Positions 21,485 to 22,850 of a stretch of DNA of 64,000 nucleotides are shown piece by piece. Positions within the stretch are counted from its first letter, which is position 1. Every line of letters starts with the position of its first letter. The position numbers and the translations under genes are program-made. Under the pieces are notes generated by a model. It saw nothing but the letters and a program-made list of their open reading frames with translations. It was not told the DNA's origin and searched no databases. Source of the stretch: an uncultured Pseudomonadota bacterium (GTDB taxonomy: Bacteria > Pseudomonadota > Alphaproteobacteria > JACZXZ01); contig CAVVLJ010000004.1 of NCBI GenBank assembly GCA_963749075.1, positions 128,001 through 192,000 of the forward strand, given 5' to 3'.

Positions 21485-22663
21485 TTACGCCGCCTCGCCG
21501 CACGCCTTCTCCAAGATCGCCACCATCTCGTCGATCTCCTCGCGCGTGACGGTGAGCGCCGGCATGAAGCGCAACGAGTCCGGGCGCGGCGCGTTCAAGA
21601 GGAGGCCGTGCTCGCGCGCGAGCTCCGCTATGCGCGGGGCGATCGAGCACTTCAAGTCGAGCGCCAGGAGGAGCCCGCGCCCGCGCACCTCGCCGAAGCC
21701 GTGGCGCTCGGAGAGCTCGGCAAGCCGTGCCGCGAGATGGGCGCCGGTCTCGCTCACCCGCTCGAGGAAGCCCGGCCGCGTCACCTCCTCCATGACGGCG
21801 CAGCCGACCGCGGTCATCAGCGGATTGCCGTTGAAGGTGCCGCCCTGGTCGCCGTGGGCGAAGCAGCAGACCTCCTGCCGCGCCACCAGTGCTGCGAGCG
21901 GCACGCCGCCGCCGAGGCCTTTGCCGAGCGTCATGATGTCGGGAAGGACGCCGGCGTGCTGATAGCCGAAGAGCTTGCCGGTGCGGCCGACGCCCGTCTG
22001 GATCTCGTCGAGGATGAGGAGGATGCCGCGCCGCGTCGTGAGCTCCCTCAGCGCGCGCAGATAGTCGTCGCCCGCCTCGAACACCCCCGCCTCGCCCTGG
22101 ATGGGCTCGAGCATCACGGCCACAGTGTTCTCCGTGATCGCCGCCTCGGCCGCGGCGAGATCGCCCAACGGCACCTTCTTGAAGCCCGGCACCTTGGGCT
22201 CGAAGAGCGCCTCCCACTGGGGCTTGCCCGAGGCGGACATGGTGGCAAGGGTGCGGCCGTGGAAGCCGTGCTCCATGGTGACGATCTCGTAGGCGCCGCC
22301 GCGGTGGAGCTGGCCCCACTTGCGCGCGAGCTTGATGGCGCCCTCGTTGGCCTCGGCGCCGCTGTTGGCGAAGAAGCTCTGGTCGAGGCCGCTCCCGCGC
22401 GCGATGAGGGCGGCTAAGCGGATCATCGGCTCGTTCAAATAGGCCGGGCTGCAGTTCATCAGCCTGGCGGCCTGGCGGGAGAGCGCCTCGCGCAGCACGG
22501 GTGGCGAGTGGCCGAGGCAGTTGACCGCCCAGCCCTGCACGAAGTCGAGATAGCGCTTGCCGCTCCGGTCGATGAGCCAGGAGCCGCGGCCCTCGACGAA
22601 GACTTGGGCGGGCCGGCTGGTGATCTCCATGAGGGCGGTCGCTTGCGGGCTTGCGTCGGGCAT
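21485..22663 (-). CDS. argD: Acetylornithine aminotransferase (class III PLP enzyme)
   Basis: [82 protein letters not shown] before ATG 22663. Confidence 0.88.
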
Positions 22664-22684
22664 GGCGTCTCTCCTTTGCATAAT

Positions 22685-22713
22685 AAAAAACCCCGCCGAG
22701 AGTCGGGCGGGGT
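22685..22713 (-). terminator. Intrinsic terminator inside the argD 5' leader (attenuator)
   Basis: Minus strand ACCCCGCC-loop-GGCGGGGT running into a T6 tract, about 20 nt before the argD start codon. Confidence 0.8.
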
Positions 22714-22739
22714 CCGGATCGTGCATCGTGCGAATTGAG

Positions 22740-22814
22740 CTAGCGCGCGCGCACCTCTCCCGTCCCGCCAAGGCTGCGGCGGCGTCGGACGCGGATGTTG
22801 AGCGCGCTATGCAT
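22740..22814 (-). CDS. Candidate Arg-rich leader peptide [24 protein letters not shown] (24 aa)
   Basis: ATG..TAG ORF with 7 Arg codons (CGC GTC CGA CGC CGC CGC cluster), lying between the promoter and the terminator upstream of argD. Confidence 0.7.
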
Positions 22815-22821
22815 GGGCGCA

Positions 22822-22850
22822 TCAATACGTGAGGTGCTGGGGATTGTCAA
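22822..22850 (-). promoter_or_regulatory. sigma70 promoter for the argD leader
   Basis: TTGACA-N17-TATTGA with 7 nt to the leader ATG, implying a leaderless transcript. Confidence 0.7.

Follow-up and report, generated by a model that had tools for sequence, protein, structure and literature searches.

A putative leader-peptide attenuator is found upstream of an argD gene on the minus strand of a 64,000-nt stretch of DNA (the window, analysed at its full length) that belongs to the genome of an uncultured Pseudomonadota bacterium, here called G000. The element includes a short upstream open reading frame (uORF) with a run of arginine codons, followed by an intrinsic terminator and then by argD, which encodes an acetylornithine transaminase. 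It is interpreted as a ribosome-mediated transcription attenuator that would report the supply of charged tRNA-Arg and control a monocistronic argD paralogue (probability of about 0.72). This reading is drawn from sequence elements, their conservation, a codon bias and alternative folds computed in silico. The transcription start, the translation of the uORF, the stalling of the ribosome and the response to arginine are inferred. The features of the leader and of argD are given below, from the promoter to the gene.

22845..22850, minus strand: -35 box TTGACA, read from the sequence.
22822..22827, minus strand: -10-like hexamer TATTGA, 17 nt past the -35 box and 7 nt ahead of the ATG, read from the sequence; orthologues have TAGAGT or TATGGT at the equivalent place.
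22740..22814, minus strand: leader uORF, 24 codons plus TAG (22742-22740), read from the sequence; kept in 5/5 orthologous loci of relatives.
22802..22812, minus strand: 5'-terminal arm of the outer OFF-state helix, whose partner is the GCGCGCGC/stop-codon region 22739-22749; from the fold, with GCGCGC blocks kept in alignment A3.
22776..22793, minus strand: regulatory Arg codons, namely CGC (codon 8), GTC, CGA (codon 10, 22787-22785) and three CGC (codons 11-13).
22777..22782, minus strand: segment 1, within the Arg codons, partner of segment 2 when free of ribosomes; from minimum free energy (MFE) folds.
22764..22769, minus strand: segment 2, GGCGGG (codons 16-17), with segment 1 or segment 3 as alternative partners; from folds and alignment.
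22739..22749, minus strand: 3' arm of the outer OFF-state helix, made of the final codons, TAG and the next base; from the fold and alignment A3.
22706..22715, minus strand: segment 3, the 5' arm of the terminator, whose CCCGCC (22711-22706) is the antiterminator partner of segment 2; from the terminator scan and the fold.
22688..22697, minus strand: segment 4, the 3' arm of the terminator; from the terminator scan and the fold.
22685..22690, minus strand: T6 tract of the intrinsic terminator; from the sequence and the terminator scan.
22671..22676, minus strand: argD Shine-Dalgarno sequence AAGGAG, read from the sequence.
21485..22663, minus strand: argD, acetylornithine transaminase of PRK03715 type, 392 amino acids, ATG at 22663; from a profile match.

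The promoter, the ATG, the Arg-run uORF, the terminator, the ribosome-binding site and the argD ATG were each found where a first-pass annotation, made from the sequence alone, had placed them on the minus strand. Its argD label also held: in a profile search, the product matches NF002985/PRK03715 with 618 bits (cut-off 568). The uORF begins with an ATG at 22814-22812, 30 nt downstream of the -35 box, and no purine-rich Shine-Dalgarno sequence is present in the seven bases before this ATG in the window. The run in its peptide is R-V-R-R-R-R and includes one CGA codon. Its stop codon is located 76 nt ahead of the argD ATG. The terminator lies in between; according to the terminator scan, its hairpin (22715-22688) has 10 pairs, of which 7 are G-C, and is followed by the T tract.

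The design recurs at related loci. The five orthologous argD loci examined (L082-L086, from G001, G003, G004, G007 and G021; 66-80% protein identity) all retain the -35 box, the gap of about 30 nt to the ATG, the Arg-run uORF and the terminator. Their nucleotides diverge, and the third-position changes within the Arg run are CGC to CGT. The survey was extended to public contigs carrying this type of argD, of which 80 were kept out of 533 confirmed. A fixed rule was applied, namely an ATG-initiated uORF of 8-40 codons with RRR or at least four R in six residues, starting 140-230 nt upstream. Such a uORF was found in 34/80 argD loci (at least 60% identity), as compared with 2/80 when these regions were read as their reverse complement and 0/74 in the region of the same size after the gene. 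None of 24 distant-paralogue loci carries an Arg-run uORF in the 140-230 nt range. The carriers are labelled Acetobacteraceae, Rhodospirillaceae, Alphaproteobacteria, Bradyrhizobium, Burkholderiales and Rhodocyclaceae. The leader is carried by 0/22 loci labelled Rokubacteria, Methylomirabilota or NC10, a count made from record titles, in which the labels of metagenome-assembled genomes (MAGs) are unreliable. The 34 loci give 35 uORFs, L018 giving two overlapping frames, and most orthologue leaders have an intrinsic terminator. The peptides of the alphaproteobacterial, Bradyrhizobium and Burkholderiales groups have only Arg runs in common. On these counts, the recurrence of the putative leader in proteobacteria is beyond chance. 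The uORF, its frame, its distance to the promoter and the terminator are thus kept in orthologues and in distant proteobacterial argD loci; conservation of the Arg-codon uORF was one of the checks proposed with the first-pass annotation.

Some loci have additional features. In L086 (G021), three tandem copies of a unit of about 24 nt separate the leader terminator from the argD start. In Burkholderiales and Bradyrhizobium leaders (L051, L065, L070, L059 and the Bradyrhizobium-type loci), the uORF ends with a further cluster of Arg codons, CGA CGA CGN; in the Bradyrhizobium leaders, the two Arg clusters are complementary to each other. A leader and an argD of Bradyrhizobium type are also found on a contig labelled Frankia sp. 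(L073), whose label or assembly is probably contaminated.

A -35-like hexamer is located 28-32 nt before the in-frame ATG of 31/35 uORFs, as compared with 95/4115 (2.3%) of all ATGs of the same loci. The gaps from the -35 box to the ATG are 29, 30, 31 and 32 nt in 8, 12, 3 and 8 uORFs, respectively. Given a spacing of 17 + 6 + 6 to 9 nt, the predicted transcription start falls at the uORF ATG or within a base or two of it, and the leader mRNA is predicted to be leaderless. A precedent exists in Alphaproteobacteria: the trpL leader mRNA of Sinorhizobium meliloti is leaderless and begins with the AUG of the leader ORF (PMC10117765, available part).

What the leaders conserve best is an in-frame CGA codon with CGC or CGT right after it, found in nearly all of them. 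The CGA singled out in the first-pass annotation is therefore the most conserved codon of the whole leader family; it lies within the Arg run of 33/35 uORFs. CGA accounts for 63/253 Arg codons of the leaders (25%) versus 24/779 (3%) of those of the adjacent argD genes, with an odds ratio of 10.4 and a Fisher p of 5e-23, a p-value that overstates the difference as the sequences are related. Conversely, CGG accounts for 10/253 leader Arg codons versus 207/779 in the adjacent genes. The uORFs were picked by Arg residues and not by codons, so that the CGA bias does not stem from the selection. The adjacent argD genes served as reference; the Arg codon usage of the six-frame long ORFs of the genome was discarded, as it gave an implausible 18% of CGA. 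CGU, CGC and CGA share one tRNA, tRNA-Arg(ICG), CGG having another (PMC3711424, available part). In the Salmonella his attenuator, codon pairs containing CGA give the strongest de-attenuation among CGN codons (PMC4046918, available part). The leader may therefore sense the charging of one isoacceptor, tRNA-Arg(ICG), through its slowest codon. G000 carries a single tRNA-Arg(ACG) gene. ARAGORN also calls tRNA-Arg genes with the anticodons CCG (two), TCT, CCT and GCG, the latter being unusual for Arg. If the GCG gene is real, it would provide a second reader for CGC and CGU, and CGA would be left to tRNA(ICG) alone.

Four complementary segments with the 1:2, 2:3 and 3:4 logic described in the first-pass annotation exist in the window and fold as claimed. 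The full leader folds (-57.4 kcal/mol) into the terminator plus a long hairpin formed by the two halves of the uORF, the Arg codons lying in the 5' half. When the leader is cut at the terminator loop and carries no ribosome, the 1:2 hairpin forms (-42.1 kcal/mol) and segment 3 is free. When nt 1-35 to 1-44 are masked (ribosome A site at codons 8-11), GGCGGG pairs with CCCGCC in an antiterminator of -30.1 kcal/mol; the terminator hairpin by itself has -18.3 kcal/mol. The masking of segment 1, one of the checks proposed with the annotation, thus flips the fold from 1:2 with a free segment 3 to 2:3, the probability of upstream pairing of segment 3 rising from 0.04 to 0.73. The same flip from 1:2 to 2:3 is seen in the MFE folds of L001, L008, L043 and L085.

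By eye, segments 2 and 4 co-vary between lineages (GGCGGG versus GACGGGGG), which matches a C/T change in segments 1 and 3; this change extends to synonymous CGC versus CGT codons in the Arg run. In the MAFFT alignment A1, 68.0% of the antiterminator cells are paired versus 60.8% after column shuffling (reached by 0/500 shuffles) and 32.5-46.5% in slid controls. A3 is a model-based alignment of 18 rows, one of which is a spurious reverse-strand hit. In A3, the 2:3 helix, to which it was not fitted, has 74.8% versus 67.8% (1/500; slid controls 37.8-67.0%), and the OFF-state, to which it was fitted, has 71.3% versus 68.0% (0/500; slid controls 38-60%). The nucleotide blocks CCGACGYCG and GCGCGCGC are conserved, and the stop codon is at a conserved place. 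RNAalifold on A1 gave a nested 1:4 + 2:3 consensus, which was not retained, as it shows just the mutual complementarity of all four segments. Overall, the structural evidence appears consistent with the switch but modest.

A covariance model, R1, was built from 10 Arg leaders of the window group. R1 finds only the argD site, both in the 64-kb window and when all of G000 is searched; by this model, the genome has no second copy of the leader. Among the argD loci, it adds L014, L015 and L035. L015 and L035, which were found by the model only, have a mixed R-R-H-R-H run (CGA CGT CAC CGC CAT). When R1 was run against 151 genomes that represent the class with about one member per family, 13 matches were obtained in 12 genomes (E up to 0.01). 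Three of them are argD leaders of the window type (G000, G003, G021). Another one, L118, is a GTG-initiated uORF with R-A-R-R-G-R including CGA CGT and a 30-nt promoter gap; it precedes an argD of a different subfamily (PRK01278, 604 bits). Four matches, in four other families of the class, have the same scaffold with Thr runs: T-T-T-S-T-K-T and T-P-T-K before asd (L120, L114), T-T-T-R-T-T before a short thrS (L119) and T-T-T-A-K-R-K before dapA (L116). These Thr uORFs are predicted to be leaderless and are followed by terminators. They look like candidate threonine, or threonine/lysine, attenuators. The remaining five matches are devoid of such an ORF and resemble plain terminators or coding sequences.

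Weak R1 hits, true and false alike, score 26-33 bits. As the scores overlap, the case for the Thr and Arg leaders rests on the ORF, the promoter spacing, the conserved position of the stop and the downstream genes. Since Arg and Thr runs occur on one scaffold, the codon run tracks the pathway of the controlled gene. No other evidence argues as strongly for the codons being the sensor as this natural exchange of the run. R1 misses the Bradyrhizobium and Burkholderiales subgroups, so its tallies underestimate the leader family.

The proposed mechanism is as follows. Transcription would produce a leaderless mRNA whose first base is the A of the uORF ATG or lies one or two bases away from it, and a 70S ribosome would load on the 5' AUG. 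When Arg-tRNA(ICG) is ample, the ribosome would reach the TAG; segments 1 and 2 would re-pair, segment 3 would be free to form the 3:4 terminator and the polymerase would halt before argD. When Arg-tRNA is scarce, the ribosome would stall at the slow CGA and the following CGC codons and would cover segment 1. GGCGGG would then pair with CCCGCC, the terminator would not form and argD would be transcribed. If the uORF is untranslated, 1:2 would form and transcription would terminate. Once the uORF is fully transcribed, the outer helix (22812-22802 with 22749-22739) could mask the leaderless start, so that only the first ribosome would load.

In the window, argD is monocistronic. The downstream gene is a convergent amidohydrolase gene (19896-21332, plus strand) and the upstream one is a divergent PhyH-family dioxygenase gene starting at 22931. 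As the neighbours are divergent and convergent, the leader terminator ends no neighbouring gene and is placed between a promoter and the gene that it serves. G000 (5.49 Mb, 96% complete, 5% contamination) has 94 strict terminators on both strands. Three distinct ones are preceded by an Arg-rich ATG uORF, and an RRRR run is found only in that of the window. The genome has a second argD-like gene (42% identity to the window argD; contig C20, about 379871-381022, minus strand). This copy is common to all family members, is followed by an ornithine carbamoyltransferase-like ORF and belongs to an argD-argF operon with a short 5' region and a TTGACA promoter. Outside G000, window-type argD genes are present in 3 of the other 5 genomes of the genus; they also occur in a second genus of the family and in an additional genome of the class. 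By this distribution, the window argD is an extra paralogue.

Several observations weigh against the attenuator reading. The -10 hexamer TATTGA is weak, agreeing with TATAAT at 3/6 positions. The leader promoter is not in the output of the consensus promoter scan for the window region, the sole promoter-like site listed being on the plus strand (22869-22897) and facing the divergent gene. The sequencing runs that contain the stretch are soil DNA metagenomes, one of which may be its source, and RNA runs share 0.04 of its sampled words. The CGC runs could partly be a by-product of G+C-rich stems. No leader ORF was found before the canonical C20 argD-argF operon of G000, the controlled gene being the second paralogue; one reading is that a starvation-induced isozyme bears the switch rather than argD-argF.

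Other observations of this kind concern the folds. Three of 30 dinucleotide shuffles of the window leader match the real pairing of segment 3, as G/C-rich leaders pair easily. Shuffle means for segment 3 pairing (0.28-0.71) are nearly as good as the real values, in a control that has weak power in G+C-rich sequence and whose script chose the wrong hairpin in several rows. In L082, L084 and L006, the antiterminator is already formed without ribosome. A clear switch (from below 0.3 to 0.5 or more) is seen in 8/22 evaluated uORFs; the per-sequence folding covered 22/35 uORFs, 13 being dropped by filters, and several hairpins were mis-picked. Comparative support for the stems, whose covariation the first-pass annotation had put forward as a check, is modest. 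The 2:3 and OFF-state pairings are modestly above shuffles, margins that kinship alone can yield without structure. The terminator and 1:2 helices are no better than column shuffles on A1, a result that is uninformative rather than negative because the terminator columns of two subgroups are offset by about 2. With these reservations, the attenuator interpretation given in that annotation is supported, all the testable predictions among its proposed checks having turned out in its favour.

Four other explanations were weighed. The least improbable, although still unlikely, is that the translated uORF matters through an output other than 2:3, for instance access of Rho, the stability of the mRNA, or a terminated leader RNA or peptide with a role in trans, as for rnTrpL/peTrpL of S. 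meliloti. The modest comparative support for the 2:3 helix and the orthologues that show no switch in folds leave some room for it, and the S. meliloti trp attenuator RNA has functions in trans (PMC10117765, available part). However, most carriers have a strong intrinsic terminator that separates argD from the uORF, the sequence of segment 4 is mimicked by segment 2 lineage by lineage, and the window leader flips cleanly in folds. An arrest peptide is improbable. In this case, the Arg-rich nascent chain, perhaps with arginine or a related metabolite, would stall the ribosome from the exit tunnel as in SpeFL, TnaC or the fungal arginine attenuator peptide. A G-G-x-G stretch and an R-A-R end recur in the window group, and a nascent chain rich in basic residues can slow the ribosome. 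Yet, beyond the Arg run, the alpha and beta groups have no conserved peptide in common, the substitutions between close orthologues have no third-position bias and the conserved blocks are RNA pairing segments. Moreover, the bias favours one codon, CGA, and not the residue; Thr runs on the same scaffold before Thr-pathway genes fit codon sensing; and the gene of a biosynthetic transaminase would not be expected to respond to high arginine by induction.

A leader RNA that binds a tRNA (T-box-like) or an arginine-responsive protein, the ORF being incidental, is more doubtful still. It would account for the high conservation of CCGACGYCG and GCGCGCGC, and, as ArgR was not found in G000, another regulator must exist or none. 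Against it, the conserved block is always in frame with the ATG at a fixed distance from the -35 box, the stop codon keeps its place, no Rfam or T-box match was obtained for the leader and Thr-run versions precede asd and thrS. Chance, i.e. a spurious ORF of G+C-rich DNA beside an unrelated terminator, is the least credible of all. CGC triplets are abundant in high-GC DNA and the estimated contamination of the MAG is 5%, but this explanation is already contradicted by the comparative counts (34/80 versus 2/80 and 0/74 in controls). The promoter spacing (31/35 versus 2.3%), the sole association of an RRRR uORF with a terminator in the genome and the orientation of the flanking genes, divergent and convergent, so that the terminator ends no other gene, also argue against it.

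The attenuator reading has close relatives among known systems. Leader-peptide attenuators form a class of which rare codons are a hallmark (PMC2836559, available part). Like the enterobacterial trpL, hisL, leuL, thrL, pheL and ilvL/ivbL, the argD leader has a short ORF in which codons for the amino acid of its own pathway form a run, enriched in slow or rare codons, as well as an intrinsic terminator and predicted mutually exclusive 1:2, 2:3 and 3:4 pairings. Unlike them, it concerns arginine, is predicted to be leaderless, lacks a Shine-Dalgarno sequence and precedes one gene rather than an operon; it has no sequence or structure homology to them. As for S. meliloti trpL (rnTrpL), the spacing from the promoter to the ATG implies an mRNA starting at the leader AUG; the latter has Trp codons, precedes trpE and gives an RNA with trans-acting roles, whereas Arg codons and argD are found here. 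In Staphylococcus aureus, the tiny uORF rbfL senses arginine limitation by slowly decoded Arg codons (AGA/AGG); the downstream ribosome-binding site is occluded, so that low arginine lowers the expression of the target, a biofilm regulator (PMC13009471, available part). Sensing of arginine limitation by a tiny uORF is likewise proposed for the argD leader, which differs by its intervening terminator, its predicted induction and its CGA, CGC and CGU codons.

The uORFs of SpeFL and of the fungal arginine attenuator peptide also precede genes of arginine or polyamine metabolism. They rely on a conserved peptide and a free ligand, whereas codons and RNA segments are conserved in the argD leader. 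ArgR/AhrC has the same task, matching arg expression to the arginine supply, but ArgR is a protein repressor that acts on DNA operators. Leaderless polycysteine uORFs of mycobacteria have codon runs that tune the expression of the downstream operon; they are leaderless codon-run ORFs as well, but differ by the amino acid, cysteine, and by their occurrence in Actinobacteria. They are not known to use an intrinsic terminator.

In Rfam, the best hit of the window is Trp_leader, with 19 bits for a gathering threshold of 41, and no hit was found at E up to 0.1 in 16 orthologue loci. There is thus no family for the leader in Rfam, a search of which the first-pass annotation had proposed as a check. 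Two Burkholderia small RNA families (anti-hemB, BcKCsr7) gave weak hits in the window region, which were not reproduced on Burkholderiales loci. No leader-peptide attenuator of arginine biosynthesis was found in a full-text literature search, whose coverage excludes most subscription journals (including older comparative genomics of proteobacterial attenuation) and supplements. This agrees with the remark made in the annotation that no description was known. The element appears to be a trp/his-type attenuator outside any curated family, leaderless as S. meliloti trpL, with a specificity (arginine, read mainly through CGA) that seems undescribed.

In textbooks, arginine biosynthesis is governed by the ArgR repressor; how the many proteobacteria lacking ArgR match expression to supply is poorly understood. 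No match to the DNA-binding domain (PF01316) or to the whole protein (TIGR01529) of ArgR was found in G000, although at 96% completeness of this MAG its absence is unproven. Both profiles match in 9/14 control genomes. A conserved Arg-codon attenuator would be a testable answer for arginine sensing in such bacteria, and the leader occurs in culturable ones, e.g. Bradyrhizobium. It would extend classical attenuation to arginine, an amino acid for which no description was found, with a leaderless design shared by lineages of both Alpha- and Betaproteobacteria. The natural swap between Arg and Thr codons on one scaffold speaks, on evolutionary grounds, for the codon run as sensor. These leaders are missing from Rfam and are likely annotated as intergenic DNA or mis-called as small proteins.

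A broader proposal can be made tentatively, at slightly less than even odds. The leaders could form a modular superfamily of leaderless attenuators in proteobacteria, with one scaffold made of a 5' AUG, a codon-run segment, a G-rich switch segment, GCGCGCGC by the stop codon and a terminator. The scaffold would be re-programmed by a simple swap of the codon run, with CGA-CGY in the case of argD and ACC/ACG in those of asd, thrS and dapA. Where ArgR is lacking, it could provide the main arginine sensing, the near-invariant CGA reading tRNA-Arg(ICG) through its slowest codon.

The divergent PhyH-family dioxygenase gene (22931-23744, plus strand) is spread over two frames. Positions 1-82 of the PhyH profile match the frame from the ATG at 22931 and positions 74-211 match the frame of the ORF 22869-23744. 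This corresponds either to a frameshift near 23200, i.e. a pseudogene, or to an assembly error.

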